From the sequence record MZ234015.1: a DNA stretch of 64,000 nucleotides; one strand, given 5' to 3'. The translations under genes were made by a program, and so were the position numbers. How positions within the stretch are numbered: the stretch's first letter is position 1; each line of letters opens with the position of its first letter. Positions 28,170-54,821 of the stretch are shown here, one piece after another. Below the pieces are notes generated by a model that was given only the letters and a program-made list of their open reading frames with translations, was not told where the DNA came from and ran no database searches. Source of the DNA: Escherichia phage vB_EcoP-101114BS3.

Positions 28170-28532
28170 TTACTCTGCTACCAAAAGGCTCAGAGATTTG
28201 CGAATGTAGTCAATACTACGGAAGTTTCGATAGTTCTCTTGGAAGCGCATTTTTTCAAACTCTGCTTCCTGAAGCTCTACCTCTGCTGCTTTATATCCTG
28301 ATAAAGCTAAACTTACCACATCCTGAGGTAAGGTATTACGACGGCGAATAAGATATTTATTCGCTTTTAGTTTACCTTGTGCACGAGCCATTTTGGCCTT
28401 TGCCGCCTTGATACCATGAGAAATCCAAAGCAGTTGCTGTTTCAGATCTTCCTCATCCATACCACCTAAATCATTTGCTACTTTATGCAGCGTAGACAGG
28501 TTCACATGGCCTTTAATGGGGCGTAGGTTCAT
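28170..28532 (-). CDS. hypothetical protein
   Basis: 120-aa ORF. Confidence 0.5.
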   Translation of the reverse strand: MNLRPIKGHVNLSTLHKVANDLGGMDEEDLKQQLLWISHGIKAAKAKMARAQGKLKANKYLIRRRNTLPQDVVSLALSGYKAAEVELQEAEFEKMRFQENYRNFRSIDYIRKSLSLLVAE

Positions 28533-28696
28533 AACTTCTCCTGTTTGTCACATTGATTGGTTAGCCAGTTGTAAGACCCACTGTTGTTCTTGCTTAACTC
28601 GCAAGATGCAAAAGAGTACATCCTGACAAACCCCACAGTGGCTAAGCAAATAAAGATTGCTGCCAATAAGAATTTAGCTTTCAACTTATTATCCAT
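28529..28696 (-). CDS. small membrane/secreted protein (55 aa)
   Basis: Below ORF-track cutoff; hydrophobic KFLLAAIFICLATVGF; stop overlaps next ATG. Confidence 0.3.
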   Translation of the reverse strand: MDNKLKAKFLLAAIFICLATVGFVRMYSFASCELSKNNSGSYNWLTNQCDKQEKL

Positions 28697-28898
28697 ACAA
28701 CCTCTTCTTTGAGCTTAAAAAAGGACTCTCCTAAGAGAGCCAAGCTTTAAGGCCAATTAAATAGATATCACCCAATATCTGTGGATAACCTGCTCTTAAA
28801 ATATTCTATCCGACGGATGTTCGAGGATTATTCCTCTCCCTAGCATCGGCCCCATACGGGAAAGATTAAATTAAGTTTAGGTTAGTTGAGCCAGAATA

Positions 28899-28934
28899 GC
28901 TCACATAGCCCTCTGATACTCACAAGGGCTATAG
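28899..28934 (-). repeat. conserved stem-loop element, copy 1 (ATAGCCC-14 nt-GGGCTAT)
   Basis: Near-identical to 34537..34570; abuts stop of a GDxF-family gene. Confidence 0.5.
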
Positions 28935-28937
28935 ATG

Positions 28938-29186
28938 TTACTCTGTGGCTCCGTCGAATCGGAGGATTGCTGCTGGAACAGGGTATGCTTCCAGATCTTC
29001 ATCCAGTCGGTATAGATGCCCTGTACTTAAATTTACAGCTGTTACTGGCTTAGAGTGGCCTCCAGCCTGTATGGAAGGAACTCTGATAAAGAACTCTTCT
29101 GGATATTCAACAGAGTGGAACACACTTCCTGAATAAAGATCTTTTATTTTAGAAGTTTGTTTAGGAGTTTTATCAGCAATTTTCAT
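28938..29186 (-). CDS. small protein, GDxF-motif family (5 copies)
   Basis: Alignable with 34583..34813, 30577..30831, 30307..30573, 33392..33643. Confidence 0.5.
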   Translation of the reverse strand: MKIADKTPKQTSKIKDLYSGSVFHSVEYPEEFFIRVPSIQAGGHSKPVTAVNLSTGHLYRLDEDLEAYPVPAAILRFDGATE

Positions 29187-29861: not shown

Positions 29862-30059
29862 TTTTGAAGCTCCAAAACAGCGCCGAAAAGAGAGGCGTCA
29901 TAGTAGCTAAAAGGAGGAGAGAAGAGGGCTTATTTACTTGCCTTTTTCTGTCCGTTAATGTACCAGATAACTGAACCGTCAGGCTGTCGTTGACCGAAGC
30001 CTTTCAAGTTAACCATTTCTTCTTCAGAGTAGGCACGTTTTCTCACTGATTTTCTCCTG

Positions 30060-30831: not shown

Positions 30832-31107
30832 TTTACCACCTTTAGTTATGGACCAATTTATGAGAGAACTCTCGGAAGAATGCTTTCATAAATAGGGGGA
30901 GGGGACGAATCCTCCCATATCCTATTAATTAATATTGCATGTAAGATCTAACAATTCGATGCTGTAGTGGATAGCGTAAAACGCTTACCGGCATTAAACC
31001 CAGCCCATGAGGGGCTTATGTGAATAAAATGCTCAACATTGAGCGGTTAGTTGATAGGAGATCTGAAGTCCTATCTCAAAGGACTCTCGTAAGAATCCTT
31101 CACGATA

Positions 31108-32193: not shown

Positions 32194-32269
32194 TGGTGCG
32201 CCCTACAGGACTCGAACCTGTAACCAATAGCTTAGAAGGCTACTGCTCTATCCGTTGAGCTAAGAGCGC
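32194..32269 (-). tRNA. tRNA-Arg (anticodon UCU)
   Basis: Hand-folded cloverleaf: 7-bp acceptor with one G-U, D arm GCTC/GAGC, anticodon loop CTTCTAA (U33, UCU, A37), T arm ACAGG-TTCGAGT-CCTGT, encoded CCA. Confidence 0.9.
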
Positions 32270-33942: not shown

Positions 33943-34158
33943 TTAAGCGCAAGCACTACGCAGTTTGTTATTCAAGAAGCGATCTTCTGCATTATACAGG
34001 AATGCATAGAACAACTCTTTTGCTACATCCCGATCGCAATTGAGACATTTAGAGATCTGTAACAACAAACCATCACGACTATTAGGATGGTCAATTATCG
34101 CAAGACGAATAATCTCACGAATACCAATGTCATGCTCAGCCGCCATAGAACCAATCAC
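33943..34158 (-). CDS. hypothetical protein
   Basis: 71-aa ORF; start uncertain. Confidence 0.4.
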   Translation of the reverse strand: MIGSMAAEHDIGIREIIRLAIIDHPNSRDGLLLQISKCLNCDRDVAKELFYAFLYNAEDRFLNNKLRSACA

Positions 34159-34536
34159 CCTGACGTTTACGAATGTTAGTTGTCAGACGAAGCATGGCAG
34201 ACTCAATCTTCAGAGCACCATTTGCTACTGCATCCATACGTTCAGGACGGTTCATACGTTTGGTTGTCTTTTTCATAATGTTCTCTCTTTATTGATGGAG
34301 GCAGGATTGCCAGTTAATATAAAGGGAAGCCCTACACGTTAAGACTTCCGCTTGTACAAACTGTCGAGAACTCTCTACCCCTAGATTGTTCTCTATCCCA
34401 AACCGATACATACCCCTACATATCGGAAAGCTGTTCGAAAATTAACAGGTTTTAGTCTATCACCGGATGTTTGAGACAAGTCTCGCCCTAGCGGTGAGCC
34501 ATATGGCGTTGAGATTATAGTTAATTGAGGAACACC

Positions 34537-34570
34537 CTCACATAGCCCTCTGATAAACACAAGGGCTATA
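34537..34570 (-). repeat. conserved stem-loop element, copy 2
   Basis: Differs from copy 1 at only 2-3 loop positions; 12 nt after stop of 34583..34813. Confidence 0.5.
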
Positions 34571-34582
34571 AGTCGATGTTAC

Positions 34583-34813
34583 TTAACCATTAATATGAGT
34601 TACTTGAACATCAGGTACAGGGATAACTTCATGGTCTTCCTGTAATTGGAACAGTGTCCCCTGACTAAGACCAACCACACGATGCATATCGTTAAGTCTA
34701 GTGTCTGTCTTTAGGTAGACATTTTCAGAGTTAGTTGGTAAACGGAACACATCGCCCGGACGTAACTCACTGAGCTTTTTAGTAACAACTACAGAGAAGA
34801 GATTAATTTTCAT
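34583..34813 (-). CDS. small protein, GDxF-motif family
   Basis: LRPGDVFRLPTNSENVYLKT...VIPVP. Confidence 0.5.
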   Translation of the reverse strand: MKINLFSVVVTKKLSELRPGDVFRLPTNSENVYLKTDTRLNDMHRVVGLSQGTLFQLQEDHEVIPVPDVQVTHING

Positions 34814-35863: not shown

Positions 35864-35913
35864 AAGTAGCTGGGCTGTCGTTATCAGAACTTACTACCCC
35901 CTTGTTTTACGGG

Positions 35914-35942
35914 CATAAAAAAGCCCCATCCGAAGACGGGGC
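35914..35942 (-). terminator. terminator-like hairpin (minus strand), one of several in 35.9-36.15 kb
   Basis: GCCCCATC-CGAA-GACGGGGC with U-run on minus strand. Confidence 0.4.
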
Positions 35943-36180
35943 GACCTGAAAGAGTGAACATGACCTCACTCATTTAAGAATCCTCGTAAAGACTCTTAAA
36001 AAAGAGGCCTCGTTAAAGGCCCGGTCAAATGACCATCCAATAGGGATTGAACCATGCCAATGATTCACAAAGGGAGTTCCCTTTAGGTATCACTAGCTAC
36101 GCAAAAAGCCGCACAAAGGCGGCAGACAAAGACGCTCAAGAAGAGCGTCATAGTAGTTGACCACTGGTCCAGAAGAGGGC

Positions 36181-37346: not shown

Positions 37347-37454
37347 GGTGTTTATCTCTTTTTAGTTTCTTTGATTAGTACACTGAATCAATGCACTAGT
37401 AAAAGAAAAGGCGCTACCCTTTCGAATAGCGCCTTATGTGTTCTTTATTGTTGG

Positions 37455-38366: not shown

Positions 38367-39692
38367 CTTTCAATTGTAAGGGCACTATGCCCCGCTCTCT
38401 ATGAGCTTTTTAAGTCACTATTGACTTATCAATAATCACTCAATATCAAGTAATTATTGATAAGCGAGGCGGTCTTATCAGGAGTTAACCTTGCCGCCTC
38501 CTTATCCGTGATGTTTCATCTGGTATCTTTAATTAGTCGCTATAAATAAAGCCGACCTGATAGCGATGATCAATCATCACAATAAGGCAGTGCGTCCGAC
38601 TCTATTTAATTACTTTATCGTAACCGTCGGCAATATCGTCTACTTTGCTTTCGCTCCCGCCTATCCTTTTGTACTAACTCTCAATCGCTAACCATCGCCC
38701 ACTACGGGAGGTTATTGCGAAAGAGTCATTAGCCGTCTAATACATTGACGTTTTATATCTTTCAGCAGGTTTACTACATAAACTGATTATGTACGCCATC
38801 AATAGTGGCCTCAAATCATTCACATCGTAAACGTTCACACTAAACCTTATTGTTAAATAGCAATTTGCCACTTTTTAACCATTCACCGCCGCCCCCAATT
38901 GGGCGTTAATTCGTCGGATTTGCCTACCCTGATAAACTTCTTTCACTGTAGCACCTTGTTAGCGATGGCCGCCGCTACCCTTTAACCGTGGGCGATTAGT
39001 TTAGGCCGTTGCGTGTACTCAATGAATCCGTTTTATCAGTGGTGACGTTTCCAGTTAAGGGATTGTAAAAACTGTTTACCCTGATAATTTAGGGAGTCTT
39101 ACGCCGTTTTATCTGGTATGTTTTCCGATGGTTATTATCATCCAACATATTCAACCGATATAGGAGAATGTTTAAATTGTTAAAGAGCGGTAAATCTATC
39201 AGTGTGCTTTCTCACACTATGCAACTGTTAGCCGTTGTTACGCTTTTCTTAAGCGGTGAATTGCTTAAGTGTGCTCATTATGAATCATGCTGTTTTAGCT
39301 GTCAACCGCTTTTTTAATCTTTTTCGTCGTTCCCTTTATTGGGAGGATATATCAATCAGCTATATTTGATTGAAGATTAAGCGGTAAGGCTTAACTCACG
39401 ATTCATATTTTTAAAGAGCGGTGTTTCTTACTGCTTGGTGAACATTCTATCAGAGTATTTCACCTTGTCAACTCTTTTTATCATCTTCTTTTATTCTATT
39501 CCCTTATCTCGCTTGAATCTATGCGAAAGGGCAAGATGATAAATTGTTAAAGAGCGGGGCACTAAGTGCCGGATGTTTCAAGTCATCGCTGACCGTGTGA
39601 ACATCTTATCATAATGATTCGATGTGTCAACAACTATTTTTCGATTAATGCATCTTGATAAACTAGCGACCGTTAAGGCCGCTAACCTTACC
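38367..39692. other. 1.3-kb ORF-free, hairpin-rich region with repeated 17-mer
   Basis: No ORF of 60 aa or more in any frame; exact 17-mer AAATTGTTAAAGAGCGG at 39174..39190 and 39541..39557 plus partial copies; several perfect inverted repeats. Confidence 0.5.
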
Positions 39693-42706: not shown

Positions 42707-42871
42707 ATGTGGAAATTGAAGATGATTATTCGTCAGATCAAATGTCAACATGAATACTACCCGATACGAATATCAAGAGGTGATGAACGATTACACGCTT
42801 ATTACAAGAGTACATGGAGATGTGCAGACTGTGGTAAGGTGAGGAATAGTAAATGGGTGGATAGGCCTTAA
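42707..42871 (+). CDS. small zinc-ribbon-like protein (54 aa), first plus-strand gene
   Basis: Below ORF-track cutoff; RBS AGGAA 8 nt upstream; C.H ... C..CG pattern like the 32278..32855 family. Confidence 0.35.
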   Translation: MWKLKMIIRQIKCQHEYYPIRISRGDERLHAYYKSTWRCADCGKVRNSKWVDRP

Positions 42872-42992
42872 CATGACATGGCCTTTATGGGTATGCCTTA
42901 ATGTGGGGTAGCCTTTATGAAGTCCCCTTTACTTCAGCGTACATGGGTTTATACATGGGTGGGCCTTTAGATGAGTACGCCTTTATGGGTTG
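42851..42992. repeat. iteron-like direct repeat array 3
   Basis: GCCTTTATGGGT at 42881 and 42979, related copies at 42911 and 42962, ACATGGGT at 42941 and 42953. Confidence 0.5.
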
Positions 42993-52178: not shown

Positions 52179-54821
52179 ATGATCGTTTATAATAACCAAG
52201 CACCTGATGCAGTGAATAACGTTGGGCAGTTTGGTGCTACTGAAGGCTCTATCGGAGCTTACAAGCAAGCAGCAGAGTATGCAGCTGACTCCAAATATTG
52301 GGCACTGTTAGCGGAGTCTAAGTTTGGTACAATTGATGACTTGATCGCTGAAGTAGAGCGTCTGTATCAACAGGGTGTTCTGATGAAGCAGGATATCGAG
52401 GATCTTAAGCAGGATTTTAAAGATCAAGATGCTCGTCTGATGAGTTTGATTGCTCAAACTAACGCAGCGGTATCAGATGCGAATAATGCTGTAGCTCTAA
52501 TTAATCAGAAACTTATTGAAGTCCAGAACCAGCTTGACGTTCTGTTAGGAATGTCCGTTGATGTAACCACACTTCCTCCGGGAACTCCGGCTACTGGTTC
52601 TTTTAATCCTAACACTGGTGTAGTCTCTCTAGGTATCCCAGAAGGCGAACCCGGAAAGGATGGTTCTGTTAAGGATTTAGACACAGCTCCTACTGGTGTT
52701 CCAGAGCTAGGTGACTTGGGTTTCTATGTTGATAAAGATGACAATACCGTCCATAAAACTACTCTAGAGAATATTGCTAACTTAATCCCATCTGTTCGTT
52801 CTGTTTCTGTTAATGGGGGACCAGCTCTTGATGGAGAGGTTGCTCTAACAATCAACAAAGAGACAGTAGGTTTAGGAAATGTTCTGAATGTTGCTCAGTA
52901 CAGTCGTCAAGAGATTAATGACAAATTTGACAAGACTACCAAGACATACCAATCAAAAGCAGAGGCTGATGCTGATGCTCAGTATCGTCAAGTTGGAGAG
53001 AAAGTCTTAGTTTGGGAAGCTACTAAGTATGAATTCTACACTGTTGCTGCTAACAAAACACTAACTCCTGTTAAAACTGAAGGTAGAATCCTTACCGTTA
53101 ACTCCCGTTCTCCAGATTCCAGTGGTAACATTGACATTACCATTCCAACAGGAAACCCTTCTCTGTATCTTGGTGAGATGGTGATGTTCCCTTACGACCC
53201 ATCTAAGAATATCTCCTACCCAGGAGTTCTTCCTGCTGATGGTCGTCTGGTATCAAAAGAATCTGCTTCAGATTTAGGCCCATCCCTTGTCAGCGGACAG
53301 CTCCCTGTTGTTTCAGAAACTGAATGGCAATCGGGGGCTAAACAGTACTTCTCTTGGGGCAAGTTAGCAGACGGTATTACCGATGCGGATTCTACTAATT
53401 TTATCAACATTCGACTCCCTGATTGGACTGGAGGGGAGGCAATAAGAGCACCAGATTCTGATAAAGACTCTCAGTACAATGGGTCTGTACAGGCTCAGAA
53501 ACCTTATGTTGTTACTGTAAATAACCAAGCTCCTGATGAGATTACTGGTAATGTGAACATCTCCAGATCAATTTTAGGTGCTGCTTCTTCTGGAGCAAAC
53601 TCTGACATTACATCTTTATCTGGACTCACAACACCGCTATCCATCTCTCAAGGTGGTACTGGAGCTAAAGATGCTGCTGGTGCTCGTTCTAATTTAGGTC
53701 TAGGCTCAACAGCTACCCTCAATACAATACCTGTAGCCAATGGTGGCACAGGAGCAACTACTGTTGATGTTGCTCGTTCCAATTTATCCATAGACCGAAT
53801 AGATCAAGCCTCCGGGGAGAGTAAATTATTATCCCCTAACAAAGAAACCTACCTCTTTGTGGATAACAATGGGTGGGGCTGTTATAGTACCTCAGCTGGA
53901 AGGGTTGGTGATGTGGCTCTTTCTGTTGAAAGAGGCGGTACTGGAGCTAAAAATGCTGCTAGTGCCCGATCTAACTTGGGGTTGGGGAGTGTTTCCACTC
54001 TAGATAACGTCCCTATCGCTAGTGGTGGGACAGGGGCTGGAGATGCTGCTGGTGCAAGGTTTAATCTTGGGTTAGGTAACTCAGCCACAATGAATACCGG
54101 AACTAACAGTGATAATGTTCTTAAGGTTGGTGATTTTGGAATTGGAAGACCTGACGGCGCTCTTGTTTTTGATACTACTTCACAAGACCAACTTCTTGCT
54201 GGACTTGACACTTATGGGCTGTGTGTGTTTAGGAATAACCAACAAATAGCAGCACCTTGGGACATATGGAACTACTCCTCAAACCTTTTCTTTAGGGCGG
54301 GTGACACATATAGTATGATAAGTATTCCGTTTGAGTCTGCCGGTAAGATAAAAGTTTTTGGTGGTGCATCAGGCAGTGGGTGGAAAACCTCAAGGACGGT
54401 ATATGATACTGTAAATACAACTGTTGACGTCAATGGCTTTATCAAAGCAGCGTCACCAATAGTTAAGGTATTCCATGACGGAAGTTTTGAAACAAACGAA
54501 CAATCTGATGGAGTTAGTGTTAAGAAAATCTCCACCGGGGTTTATTTAATTTCAGGGTGTCTTGGTCTTAATTCTGATGCAGGGTGGGGTGGGGTAGATG
54601 GAGGTTTTGAAATCCCAATAGACCGAAACAAACAACCTAGAGTTTGGCTTGACTATGAGGTTAAAGAGGATGGTTCTCTTTTAATTAAAACTTATCATAG
54701 AACCCATTCAACATCCCCAGCTTTTGCTAGAAACGAGTTGGAAGGTTTTTCTGACGGAGACCCTGTTGACATTCCTAAGGATGCGTTCATTTCGGTTCGT
54801 GTTGAAATGCCTTCTAAGTAA
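52179..54821 (+). CDS. tail fiber protein
   Basis: Repeated GGTGA..AA.ARxNLGLG tail-fibre repeat motifs. Confidence 0.75.
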   Translation: MIVYNNQAPDAVNNVGQFGATEGSIGAYKQAAEYAADSKYWALLAESKFGTIDDLIAEVERLYQQGVLMKQDIEDLKQDFKDQDARLMSLIAQTNAAVSDANNAVALINQKLIEVQNQLDVLLGMSVDVTTLPPGTPATGSFNPNTGVVSLGIPEGEPGKDGSVKDLDTAPTGVPELGDLGFYVDKDDNTVHKTTLENIANLIPSVRSVSVNGGPALDGEVALTINKETVGLGNVLNVAQYSRQEINDKFDKTTKTYQSKAEADADAQYRQVGEKVLVWEATKYEFYTVAANKTLTPVKTEGRILTVNSRSPDSSGNIDITIPTGNPSLYLGEMVMFPYDPSKNISYPGVLPADGRLVSKESASDLGPSLVSGQLPVVSETEWQSGAKQYFSWGKLADGITDADSTNFINIRLPDWTGGEAIRAPDSDKDSQYNGSVQAQKPYVVTVNNQAPDEITGNVNISRSILGAASSGANSDITSLSGLTTPLSISQGGTGAKDAAGARSNLGLGSTATLNTIPVANGGTGATTVDVARSNLSIDRIDQASGESKLLSPNKETYLFVDNNGWGCYSTSAGRVGDVALSVERGGTGAKNAASARSNLGLGSVSTLDNVPIASGGTGAGDAAGARFNLGLGNSATMNTGTNSDNVLKVGDFGIGRPDGALVFDTTSQDQLLAGLDTYGLCVFRNNQQIAAPWDIWNYSSNLFFRAGDTYSMISIPFESAGKIKVFGGASGSGWKTSRTVYDTVNTTVDVNGFIKAASPIVKVFHDGSFETNEQSDGVSVKKISTGVYLISGCLGLNSDAGWGGVDGGFEIPIDRNKQPRVWLDYEVKEDGSLLIKTYHRTHSTSPAFARNELEGFSDGDPVDIPKDAFISVRVEMPSK

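Follow-up and report, generated by a model that had tools for sequence, protein, structure and literature searches.

Two paralogous RNA modules in the early region

The stem-loop flagged in this genome is an RNA structure on the mRNA-sense strand (the minus strand of the window). It is H1, the helix that opens each of two structured and paralogous intergenic RNA modules, A and B. The window, i.e., the whole 64-kb stretch of DNA analysed, comes from a phiEco32-like phage; both modules lie inside its early small-gene region, and the genes around them, as well as the element itself, are on the minus strand. The original prediction described two near-identical hairpins, each following one of two paralogous genes, and both hairpins are indeed present:

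28904..28933, minus strand: copy A, upper stem-loop of hairpin H1, the flagged element, UAUAGCCCUUGUGAGUAUCAGAGGGCUAUG (folding and alignment)
34541..34571, minus strand: copy B, upper stem-loop of hairpin H1, UUAUAGCCCUUGUGUUUAUCAGAGGGCUAUG (folding and alignment)
28938..29186, minus strand: upstream paralog 1, 82 aa (ORF list and protein comparison)
34583..34813, minus strand: upstream paralog 2, 76 aa (ORF list and protein comparison)

The pattern ATAGCCCTCTGATANNCACAAGGGCTAT matched exactly twice in the window (28905-28932 and 34542-34569; 0.00 matches expected from 100 shuffles), the looser pattern ATAGCC-N6-24-GGCTAT found the same two sites only (0.03 expected), and a covariance model recovered exactly two copies at 125 and 116 bits, with the next match at 14.8 bits. 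Relatives likewise have two places per record. The 34-nt copies differ at 2 positions, in agreement with the few loop differences first noticed, and the elements as originally delimited lie 3' of the stop codons of the upstream genes, at distances of 3 nt (28938..29186) and 12 nt (34583..34813). These genes are paralogous at about the 30% identity proposed (32% over 71 aa, E = 3e-8) and have PHROGs 6570/7431/7832/8365/16423 in common. The description of a 7-bp stem with a 14-nt loop needs revision: the stem has at least 10 bp plus a small apical extension, and its base is prolonged by a second helix in both copies. Similarity between A and B also reaches beyond the hairpin to cover the entire ~250-310-nt intergenic regions; the original description had missed this much larger, conserved and structured module, of which the hairpin makes up no more than the 5' helix. 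One further motif, reported as related in the opposite orientation at 31005-31020, is at chance level, with 1 match in the window against 0.34 expected and at least one match in 30 of 100 shuffles, and its region scored 7.8 bits (E = 5.3) under the covariance model:

31012..31023, plus strand: GGGCTTATGTGA, taken as a chance occurrence that does not belong to the element

Both modules fold into multi-hairpin structures, for which folding and alignment gave the following parts:

28697..28945, minus strand: module A, ~250 nt, multi-hairpin, reaching from around the stop codon of ORF 28938..29186 as far as the start of ORF 28529..28696
28861..28887, minus strand: copy A, AU-rich linker, ACUAACCUA, invariant in 16 of 16 aligned sequences
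28851..28860, minus strand: copy A, small hairpin CCC-GUAU-GGG, with a C-G to G-C swap and 2 of 3 pairs compensatory across families
28810..28849, minus strand: copy A, P1 (CCGAUG/CGUCGG), 7x7 internal loop and P2 (GAGGA/UCCUC), with covariation
28763..28780, minus strand: copy A, hairpin AGAUAU-UGGGUG-AUAUCU, absent in 7-11 and SE131
28717..28741, minus strand: copy A, intrinsic terminator GGCUCUC-UUAG-GAGAGUC followed by CUUUUUU, the module end (terminator scan)
34277..34585, minus strand: module B as a whole, ~310 nt, multi-hairpin
34461..34507, minus strand: copy B, small hairpin GCC-AUAU-GGC, P1 (CACCG/CGGUG) and P2 (GAGAC/GUCUC) (alignments)
34366..34426, minus strand: copy B, two hairpins (34403-34426 and 34366-34393), each with the loop UAGGGGUA (alignment)
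34300..34351, minus strand: copy B, long hairpin with variable apex and terminal hairpin GGCA-AUCC-UGCC; helix 10 has 6 compensatory pairs

The most conserved core is P1-internal loop-P2, whose loop reads CUAGGGN / RAACAUC overall and CUAGGGC / AAACAUC where it is enclosed by P1 of copy B; 5 of 6 P1 pairs are compensatory in the cross-family alignment. In module A, UAACCU of the linker is predicted to pair with AGGUUA at 28786-28791 and so to close a multi-branch domain, and the terminator, annotated as such in SU7 and 7-11, is conserved with G.U/A-U variation. In module B, the two hairpins with the UAGGGGUA loop contain one (helix 7) and five (helix 8) compensatory pairs, in phiEco32-type phages the apex of the long hairpin is enlarged by an insertion of 58 nt, and the terminal hairpin precedes the ribosome-binding site of ORF 34136..34276. 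Small CDSs within module B are annotated in MZ234017 and not in SU7 or phiEco32; the several small ORFs annotated inside the modules in deposited genomes are probably not genes.

A scan placed strong sigma-70 promoters at 39630, 39471, and 39305, and terminator-like hairpins occur downstream of them on the minus strand of the early region (37435, 35942, 36022, 33939, and 28741). Gene orientation and these strong upstream promoter matches suggest that the modules are co-transcribed with the early genes.

Compensatory changes, strand specificity, and the DNA-level reading

Pair counts on the RNAalifold structures gave 57 pairs for module A (97.8% of cells paired; 13 pairs changed on both sides) and 77 for module B (99.2%; 15 pairs). 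Sliding the 3' partner by 1-3 columns as a control left only 0-5 compensatory pairs, and the observed values were reached in 0 of 500 shuffles. The cross-family alignment was 98.5% paired, with 17 of 23 pairs compensatory, and 6 of the 9 H1 pairs were changed on both sides across families. On the opposite strand, 86-87.5% of cells can form the same structure, because 12% of cells are G.U pairs, and the structure is therefore specific to the mRNA-sense strand.

Within the module A alignment, the six pairs at the base of H1 (columns 15-20 with 37-42) never change, and the four above them differ between sequences but mostly remain paired. Relatives likewise keep the base UAUAGCC/GGCUAU followed by GUGAG, a combination conserved across phage families, and their tops vary in sequence and length. 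Variants that retain the stem as its length changes include ATAGCCTTC[TTCG]GAGGGCTAT, ..CC[CTCC]GG.., ATAGCCTACT[CCCG/TCCG/TACG]AGTGGGCTAT, ATAGCCTTC[TTCT]GAAGGCTAT, and UAUAGCUCA..UGGGCUAU; loop variants of copy B in relatives are GUAUCCAUC, GUGCUUAUC, GUAUUUAUC, and GUGUUUACC, and one contig (L114) has a wholly different stem sequence at the place of H1. UNCG tetraloops are a common cap: copy A ends in UUCG, CUCG, UCCG, or UACG in the compared Kuravirus and 7-11-group phages and in neither window copy. A retained base below a varying, UNCG-capped top argues for an RNA structure and against a promoter or operator.

A promoter or operator had been offered among the possible roles, but a DNA-level element, whether a sigma-70 promoter with operator, a cassette of the PeSL type, or a protein-bound inverted repeat, is now largely refuted and highly improbable. 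In its favour, TATAAT occurs in an AT-rich stretch 27 nt downstream of copy B, TTTAAT is found downstream of copy A, and the 5' edge of the module falls where gene content changes from phage to phage, a property shared by the PeSLs of T4-type phages (PMC4122927). The promoter scan, however, placed no sigma-70 site at either module; the TATAAT of copy B becomes TATATC, TTATTA, or ACATCA in relatives that conserve everything else, and in the 7-11 version extra nucleotides are inserted in the region where a -35 box would have to lie. The two half-sites are spaced by 10, 12, 13, 16 nt and more with their complementarity kept, unlike an operator of fixed spacing; on the sense strand 98-99% of cells pair, compared with 86-87% for the opposite strand; UNCG tetraloops cap the relatives; and there are only two copies per genome, whereas PeSLs are numerous. 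Promoters of the phage sigma factor gp36 of phiEco32 carry the element tAATGTAtA / AATGTA (PMC4281155, PMC12276001); CTATGTGAG matches this consensus at 4 of 9 positions and inspection found no AATGTA in either module, so a gp36 promoter was rejected.

As originally recognised, H1 is not an intrinsic terminator either: GUGAGC or GUGAGG stands directly after the stem with no U-tract (the next sequence is GUGAGCUAUUC in A and GUGAGGGUGUU in B), and H1 is absent from the hits of the terminator scan, which include the hairpin that closes module A (28741-28724), a separate structure. The class that fits best is an RNA-level element of processing or stability, also among the original suggestions, in view of the compensatory changes, the sense-strand-specific G.U pairs, the UNCG caps in relatives, and the position at the stop codon.

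Conservation, spread, and probable gene conversion

The hairpin is far better conserved than the neighbouring coding sequence, as first proposed, and this holds for the modules as a whole: identity to phiEco32 is 86% for module A and 82.5% for module B, compared with 66-70% for neighbouring genes where these have not been replaced, and over 11 kb, nothing but module A matches Salmonella phage 7-11 at the nucleotide level. Both modules occur in about 100 phage records, and remote members were found in Zobellviridae phages. The modules are kept even where the flanking genes are swapped, with other genes upstream in LAMP, Bas93, IMEP8, and NJ01. The module is thus not bound to the paralogous genes, which had previously gone unnoticed.

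A hairpin pattern scan returned 67 loci, mostly by chance, of which weak hairpin-only candidates (L041, L048/L059, and L027) were left after the model search; pattern scans of metagenomes and genomes contributed new variants and one remote member, other matches having no H1 and fewer than 18 bits; and a scan of IMG/VR with the core pattern found the same phage group only. With Rfam 15 in gathering mode, the whole window gave tRNA-Arg alone, and in E-value mode the best match to either module was STnc100 over the terminator part (21 bits vs a gathering score of 47). A tRNA-like reading of GGGCUAU..GAGC..GCUC was rejected, as ARAGORN and Rfam detected only the true tRNA-Arg. These elements go unmentioned in the papers on SU7, SU10, and 7-11.

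Near-identity of the two hairpin tops is restricted to the genus Suseptimavirus. Copy A is short-topped in the Kuravirus, Nieuwekanaalvirus, and 7-11-group phages compared, and a B-like top in copy A was seen only in Suseptimavirus (this phage, SU7, and ECBP2), where the two copies have two differences, both in the variable loop. The simplest explanation, and a probable one, is a short gene conversion in Suseptimavirus with copy B as donor and copy A as recipient; the near-identity of the tops does not indicate selection on the loop sequence.

Alternative folds at the upstream stop codon

In 30 of 30 cases, TATAGCC follows the upstream stop codon at a distance of 4-13 nt; the genes that end there (71-155 aa) differ between phages, and the lower helix usually includes that stop codon. 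The upper stem-loop of copy A alone folds at -14.6 kcal/mol (z = -3.5), and the region around the stop codon can adopt two folds:

28892..28945, minus strand: copy A, extended hairpin of lower helix, internal loop, and H1 upper stem (MFE -23.6 kcal/mol, z = -3.2)
34528..34583, minus strand: copy B, extended hairpin (MFE -21.9 kcal/mol, z = -3.5)
28888..28902, minus strand: copy A, hairpin H2, GAGCUA-UUC-UGGCUC, whose variants keep pairing
34527..34539, minus strand: copy B, alternative hairpin H2, GAGG-GUGUU-CCUC (folding and alignment)

In copy A, the lower helix pairs GAGUAAC (28937-28943) with GCUAUUC (28894-28900), contains the stop codon UAA (28938-28940), and is mutually exclusive with H2. 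In copy B, it pairs AACAUC (34575-34580) with GGUGUU (34531-34536) across the internal loop GACU / GUGAG, and the upstream stop UAA is at 34583-34585. Lower-helix pair 8:49 reads A-U/G.U/G-C in the module A alignment and C-G (10), U.G (4), or U-A (1) in that of module B, with more U-A and U.G variants elsewhere. All variants of H2 in copy A stay paired (GAGUUA..UGACUC, GAGUCA..UGACUC, GAGUUA..UAACUC, and GAGCUA..UGGCUC), and H2 of copy B showed no covariation among the compared sequences, its arms being unchanged and its loop having one substitution (GGGUG to GGAUG). Overall, the lower helix and H2 have few covarying positions each. The minimum free energy fold is the extended hairpin in both window copies and H1 plus H2 in phiEco32 and 7-11.

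Possible functions of the modules

We tentatively propose that H1 most likely serves as a post-transcriptional boundary for mRNA processing and stability, possibly sensitive to translation of the upstream gene. Placed 4-13 nt past the stop codon, it would form a stable 3' hairpin of the upstream cistron. The upper stem, internal loop, and lower stem, together with the AU-rich single-stranded linker, could present a site for an endoribonuclease of the RNase III or RNase E type, and cleavage near H1 would leave the upstream message on one fragment and the module body with the downstream genes on another. On reaching the stop codon, a ribosome would have to open the lower helix, which would move the balance towards H2 and could make folding dependent on upstream translation. 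Cleavage and stabilisation are purely inferred, because no transcript-end data for Kuravirus or phiEco32-like phages were found in the literature within reach. An architecture of the T7 RNase III type (upper stem, internal loop, and lower stem) is what both window copies adopt as their minimum free energy fold, and the lower helix shows some covariation, but the duplex is short and H2 offers an alternative fold.

Some properties sit less well with such a boundary. Measured against classical RNase III sites of E. coli, the duplex (6-7 bp plus 9-11 bp) is short, and a plain stabiliser needs neither a base sequence and GUGAG conserved over three phage families nor a further 200-250 nt of conserved structure behind it. 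The conserved base, GUGAG, and body point to specific recognition, be it by a protein, by RNA polymerase, or through tertiary contacts within the module, for which the boundary explanation does not account.

Recognition by RNA polymerase would be central if the modules were processive antitermination RNAs like put of HK022, which suppresses termination in cis through the beta' zinc-binding domain of the polymerase. H1 and H2 (55-70 nt) in the nascent early transcript would then bind the host enzyme and allow read-through of the many early intrinsic terminators, including that of module A. This seems rather unlikely to us. H1 and H2 are adjacent (2-4 nt apart) and both covary, there are two copies in the early region as for putL and putR, several terminator-like hairpins lie on the same strand downstream of strong sigma-70 promoters, and cross-family conservation of the H1 base would suit recognition by a conserved host enzyme. 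The modules, however, are not promoter-near but 5-11 kb downstream of the early promoters, after terminator-like sites, and read-through would explain neither the 200+ nt of further conserved structure nor the fixed post-stop position. The best hit of module covariance model R1 in the HK022 genome was 8.2 bits (E = 2.8), which also speaks against this reading, as a test of homology only, R1 being a model of the module family.

The body could instead be a trans-acting non-coding RNA cut from the early transcript, with H1 and the linker as its 5' processing site, that binds or sequesters a host or phage protein or RNA via its G-rich loops (CUAGGG, UAGGGGUA twice, and UAGGGCU); we regard this as unlikely too, if somewhat less so. 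The multi-hairpin form with the same 8-nt loop on two covarying module B stems is in its favour, as is the invariant 7x7 internal loop, whose non-Watson-Crick covariation resembles sheared pairs (A..G 20, C..A 15, A..A 3, and C..G 0). Module A also ends in a real terminator, as do 3' UTR-derived small RNAs, noncoding conservation across phage families is extreme, and no Rfam family matches. Yet the scan found no promoter of its own and -10-like boxes are not conserved, a search of 5,426 E. coli genomes gave no homolog or mimicry target, and the loops do not contain the GGA motif of CsrA sites. CsrA-type GGA loops were rejected on finding that half of the sequences read CUAGGGC, and a trans target of UAGGGGUA was rejected as well, its complement occurring twice in coding regions, at chance level.

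The exclusive helices bring to mind a cis-acting attenuator or riboswitch-like leader, in which H1 and H2 would be part of a switch and the multi-branch domain of module A would sense a ligand, a protein, or upstream translation and set its own terminator or the translation of the next small gene. In module A, the junction and invariant internal loop lie directly upstream of the conserved terminator and the next ribosome-binding site, and the competition between lower helix and H2 recurs in the window copies and, from sequences read by eye, in Klyazma and L114. We nevertheless consider this improbable: a U-tract terminator is missing from module B and from the Zobellviridae members, none of the known riboswitch classes matches, and the candidate anti-terminator pairing AAGAGC/GCUCUU is short and lost in 7-11. 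Anti-terminator pairings of GGGAGAG or AAGAGC with the terminator 5' arm were dropped for this lack of conservation in 7-11.

Beyond the boundary role, it is possible, and we hold this with some doubt, that the modules represent a family of large structured RNAs (about 230-350 nt) new to science, with a dedicated role that goes further than message trimming. Such a family would be marked by a stop-adjacent extended hairpin, a loop-E-like invariant internal loop (CUAGGGN / RAACAUC), and repeated G-rich loops, and its distribution covers early regions of enterobacterial podophages from three taxa (Gordonclarkvirinae, Grimontviridae, and Zobellviridae). The phiEco32-like, 7-11-like, and CVT22 genomes examined have a phage sigma factor (from the literature and, for CVT22, the annotation) and an amidoligase gene cluster. 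Possible dedicated roles are the reprogramming of host RNA polymerase or ribosomes and a decoy for a host factor, and either may involve a switch that is read out by ribosomes terminating on the upstream gene.

phiEco32-like phages serve as a model of how a phage takes over host transcription and are in development for therapy, and their early region has so far been treated as a string of small unknown genes. The best-conserved sequences of that region are not genes but two folded RNA segments, which survive gene shuffling and reach other phage families. Should the segments work as free RNAs, or govern how early messages are processed, read through, or translated, they would represent an unrecognised regulatory layer in this phage group and a candidate new RNA family.

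Comparison with known systems

The RNase III signals of phage T7 early mRNA (R1.1 type) are intercistronic hairpins with an upper stem, an asymmetric internal loop, and a lower stem. Similarly, H1 is an intercistronic hairpin in an early polycistronic transcript of the host polymerase with a predicted asymmetric loop, here GACU / GUGAG (~4/5 nt), and, by analogy, the cleaved hairpin would stay as a 3' stabiliser of the upstream message. Compared with R1.1, H1 has a shorter duplex (9-11 bp plus 6-7 bp) and a lower helix in competition with a second hairpin; ~200-250 nt more of conserved structure follow, there are only two copies, and cleavage is putative.

The putL and putR sites of HK022 are about 70 nt long and consist of two stem-loops with some shared sequence (PMC9378689). 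The modules resemble them in having two copies per genome in early units, two adjacent stem-loops of ~60-70 nt, terminators downstream, and copies alike in structure and partly in sequence; they differ in showing no detectable similarity to put, in not being promoter-proximal, in being embedded in a larger structure, and in their fixed relation to a stop codon.

PeSLs of T4-type phages are short and numerous, with a near-consensus sigma-70 promoter beside the stem-loop (PMC2839356, PMC4122927). In common with them, the modules are conserved intergenic stem-loop sequences in a hyperplastic early region of small ORFans, with breakpoints of gene gain and loss at the element, and recombination between copies is plausible, which would here explain the conversion of A by B. 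In contrast to PeSLs, the modules number only two, have no conserved promoter beside them, and form a large RNA structure with covariation.

In T4, intercistronic hairpins capped by C(UUCG)G / UNCG have been described (Tuerk et al. 1988, as cited in PMC8948821, ref. 27), and in phage 7-11 a GTTCGG stem-loop between genes 48 and 47 gives a primer-extension stop that was interpreted as a processing site or a reverse-transcriptase stop (PMC8948821). H1 is likewise a very stable RNA hairpin between cistrons, with copy A capped by UUCG, CUCG, UCCG, or UACG in most relatives. The window copies differ from these hairpins in their longer, non-UNCG tops, and H1 differs from generic stabiliser hairpins in that the base of its stem and the GUGAG that follows are conserved in sequence across phage families.

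Genomic setting and shape of the hairpin

The two near-identical stem-loops (copy A, 28904-28933; copy B, 34541-34571; both minus strand) are, on comparative sequence evidence, each the first helix (H1) of an uncatalogued structured RNA module that is deeply conserved and occurs here twice. Both sequences were present where originally predicted, the 28-nt core pattern having 2 matches in the window against 0.00 expected, and the loose pattern ATAGCC-N6-24-GGCTAT matched at the same two sites only. The predicted hairpin stood, with a stem of at least 10 bp and a small apical extension rather than a 7-bp stem and 14-nt loop (free energies of -14.6 and -13.8 kcal/mol; z about -3 to -3.5), while a supposedly related motif at 31012 was at chance level (0.34 expected; at least one match in 30 of 100 shuffles). 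The two upstream genes are indeed paralogous (32% identity, E = 3e-8, PHROG families in common).

The region is 100% identical to that of Escherichia phage vB_EcoP-101114UKE3 (MZ234017; Gordonclarkvirinae, Suseptimavirus; phiEco32-like podophage), and the minus strand carries every gene surrounding modules A and B, the intergenic segments opened by H1. By homology with phiEco32 and SU10, the early-gene block would be transcribed by the host polymerase (PMC4281155).

Features of modules A and B and their surroundings
39630, 39471, 39305: strong sigma-70-type promoters (promoter scan); the small early-gene block with both modules is downstream of them
34583-34585, minus: stop codon of the gene upstream of copy B; hairpin downstream on the coding strand
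34277-34585, minus: module B, intergenic
28938-28940, minus: stop codon of the gene upstream of copy A; hairpin downstream on the coding strand
28697-28945, minus: module A, intergenic
28717-28741, minus: canonical intrinsic terminator at the end of module A (terminator scan; annotated in SU7 and 7-11)

Between the modules lies a tRNA-Arg(UCU) (32194-32269, minus), the sole Rfam or ARAGORN match in the window. A cluster of strong intrinsic-terminator-like hairpins (35864-36150 and 37405-37435, minus), including GCCCCGUC[UUCG]GAUGGGGC+U6 at 35942-35923 and one with a 12-bp stem at 37435-37408 (both minus), sits within the early region, separating the early promoters from most early genes, which prompts the question how early transcription gets past them.

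Architecture and covariation of modules A and B

Alignment of the two intergenic segments gave blocks in common along their whole length, beyond the 35 nt of the hairpin, in the following order: H1, GUGAG and a small second hairpin (H2); an AU-rich linker; a hairpin of 3 bp (GCC-AUAU-GGC or CCC-GUAU-GGG); the stem P1, which surrounds the distal stem P2 and an internal loop that is strictly conserved (CUAGGGN / RAACAUC); and more hairpins. Module B carries the identical loop UAGGGGUA on two hairpins; it also has a long hairpin whose apex varies and, ahead of the next gene, a small final one. Two unpaired positions beside P2 covary (A..G 20, C..A 15, A..A 3, C..G 0), as expected of a sheared non-Watson-Crick pair.

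Within H1, the base UAUAGCC/GGCUAU and the GUGAG behind it are constant, and the top varies in both sequence and length: ATAGCCTTC[TTCG]GAGGGCTAT in phiEco32, ATAGCCTACT[CCCG/TCCG/TACG]AGTGGGCTAT in the 7-11 group, and, as other variants, [CTCG], CC[CTCC]GG and [TTCT] with U.G changed to U-A. Many of the caps in relatives are UNCG tetraloops, whose stabilising effect is RNA-specific (Tuerk 1988, cited in PMC8948821). Judged from these alignments, H1 varies in the manner of a structural RNA helix.

RNAalifold was applied to the distinct sequences collected, 16 of module A and 15 of module B, and yielded 57 and 77 pairs, with 97.8% and 99.2% of cells paired and 13 and 15 pairs changed on both sides, respectively. 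Sliding the 3' partner by 1-3 columns left 0-5 such pairs, and the observed values were reached in 0 of 500 column shuffles. G.U pairs make up about 12% of cells and the opposite-strand reading of the structure pairs just 86-87.5%, and the fold is therefore assigned to the mRNA-sense strand. The original prediction of an RNA element other than a terminator agrees with these data; its alternative, a promoter or operator, is argued against by the variable half-site spacing, the G.U pairs and the lack of a conserved -35/-10, and we regard DNA-level readings as largely excluded and highly improbable.

Small CDSs annotated in MZ234017 (tags 095, 117 and 118; 28901-29002, 34289-34411 and 34393-34560, minus) overlap H1 or lie within module B, and none is annotated in those positions in SU7 or phiEco32. 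Because length differences in relatives are not multiples of 3 and the RNA structure covaries, we suggest that these CDSs are spurious.

Other structured, conserved or repeated stretches were also observed. A third long intergenic spacer (30832-31107, minus; MFE z = -3.25; 77% conserved with phiEco32) opens like the modules, with a stop codon, a UNCG-capped hairpin AAGGAUUCU[UACG]AGAGUCCUU, a hairpin GAUAGGA..UCCUAUC and the 9-mer CAACUAACC, found exactly elsewhere in module A only; the covariance model described below did not recognise it (7.8 bits). The region's best-conserved segment relative to phiEco32 (87%) is 29881-30034, in the spacer 29862-30059, and its phiEco32 counterpart is annotated as a 38-aa ORF, phi32_94. 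A direct repeat of about 35 nt (TGGRTRGGCCTTAA..GCCTTTATGRRT) occurs three times in 42858-42990 (spacing 30 and 68 nt). By the coordinate offset (window position = record position - 33294; record length 75747), this stretch falls just outside the deposited linear record, past its end, and would therefore be close to a genome terminus. In the late-gene part, a 48-nt coding repeat, GGTGGTACTGGAGCTAAAGATGCTGCTGGTGCTCGTTCTAATTTAGG, occurs four times in 53651-54070 (plus; 71-85% identity), arranged in pairs 90 nt apart.

Conservation, gene exchange and remote members

Each module occurs in about 100 phage records. Identity to phiEco32 is 86% for module A and 82.5% for module B, against 66-70% for neighbouring coding sequence where it is not replaced, and over 11 kb compared with Salmonella phage 7-11 (Grimontviridae), nothing but module A matches at the nucleotide level. 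Despite differing upstream genes (71, 72, 77, 82, 98, 103 or 155 aa), TATAGCC has a stop codon 4-13 nt ahead of it in every case, most commonly UAA or UGA inside a conserved AGUAAC / AGUGAC / AAUAAC. Since the upstream gene differs and the stop-codon position is kept, the element evidently does not belong to the paralogous genes; on these comparisons, it stays in place while genes are exchanged around it.

In the Kuravirus, Nieuwekanaalvirus and 7-11-group genomes compared, the H1 top is short in A and long in B, with only the base and GUGAG in common. Among the genomes compared, a B-like top in copy A was restricted to Suseptimavirus (the window phage, SU7 and ECBP2), where it differs from B at 2 positions, both among the 4 loop positions variable across B copies. 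On the simplest reading, a short tract of A was converted to the B sequence in Suseptimavirus, which would explain the likeness of the copies. Separately, Escherichia phage EcoN5 carries two identical module A copies (locus L077, 6479-6611 and 7997-8129) about 1.5 kb apart, through tandem duplication of the block gp92-gp91-module-gp90-gp89.

A covariance model was built from H1, P1, P2 and the small hairpin between H2 and P1; it recovered exactly two copies in the window. On fetched loci it also recovered remote members, one in a CVT22-like podophage contig of 48.7 kb assigned to a Flavobacterium MAG by binning (63 bits) and two in Zobellviridae, namely Klebsiella phage Klyazma (38 bits) and Citrobacter phage CVT22 (25.5 bits). 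The H1 and P1 stems of the contig are wholly different in sequence and its internal loop (CUAGGGC / AAACAUC) is identical; Klyazma retains UAUAGC..GCUAUGUGGG. In these two the surroundings are a region of small genes and the element stands behind a stop codon; in CVT22 it occupies the intergenic spacer directly downstream of gp79. The amidoligase gene cluster is present in CVT22 and Klyazma, and a sigma factor is annotated in CVT22 as well. The cross-family alignment, which was fitted to the model and hence biased towards it, was 98.5% paired; 17 of its 23 pairs were compensatory. No Rfam family matched the module, and no homolog was found among 5,426 E. coli genomes.

UAUAGCC..GGCUAU with (G/A)UGAG, then a second hairpin and an ACUAA(A/C)C-like stretch, also occurs in unrelated-looking IMG/VR viral contigs (L041 2911-3026, L048 2526-2630, L059 3748-3852; 20-28 bits) that lack the P1/P2 core; these were retrieved by a pattern demanding the hairpin itself and are thus weak evidence.

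Alternative pairing at the stop codon and possible function

Below its base, H1 is extended by a lower helix, GAGUAAC with GUUAUUC in A (GCUAUUC in the window) and AACAYC with GRUGUU in B, where the intervening internal loop is GACU / GUGAG. The lower helix covaries (C-G, U.G or U-A in B; A-U, G.U or G-C in A), and both window copies have the extended hairpin as their MFE fold (-23.6 and -21.9 kcal/mol). H2 overlaps the 3' strand of this helix and has covariants of its own (GAGCUA..UGGCUC, GAGUUA..UGACUC, GAGUCA..UGACUC, GAGUUA..UAACUC); in phiEco32 and 7-11, the MFE fold is H1 plus H2. Because the 5' strand of the lower helix contains or adjoins the upstream stop codon, a ribosome terminating there would have to open the helix, thereby favouring H2.

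The best-fitting mechanism, which we put forward tentatively, is a post-transcriptional boundary. A search for transcript-end mapping in phiEco32-like phages found none in the literature consulted. The boundary reading leaves the cross-family conservation of the H1 base and the large conserved body unexplained, and three rivals were therefore retained. A trans-acting RNA freed from the transcript is unlikely, a put-like antiterminator, with no homology to HK022, is rather more doubtful, and an attenuator setting the module A terminator or downstream translation seems distinctly improbable.

Under the boundary mechanism, the upstream message may be separated endonucleolytically at H1 or the linker, and the stable hairpin directly behind the stop codon may protect its 3' end, as suggested by the stop-adjacent position of that hairpin, the stem, internal loop and stem shape, and the AU-rich single strand behind. 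In this stem, internal loop and stem shape, H1 with its lower helix resembles R1.1 of phage T7.
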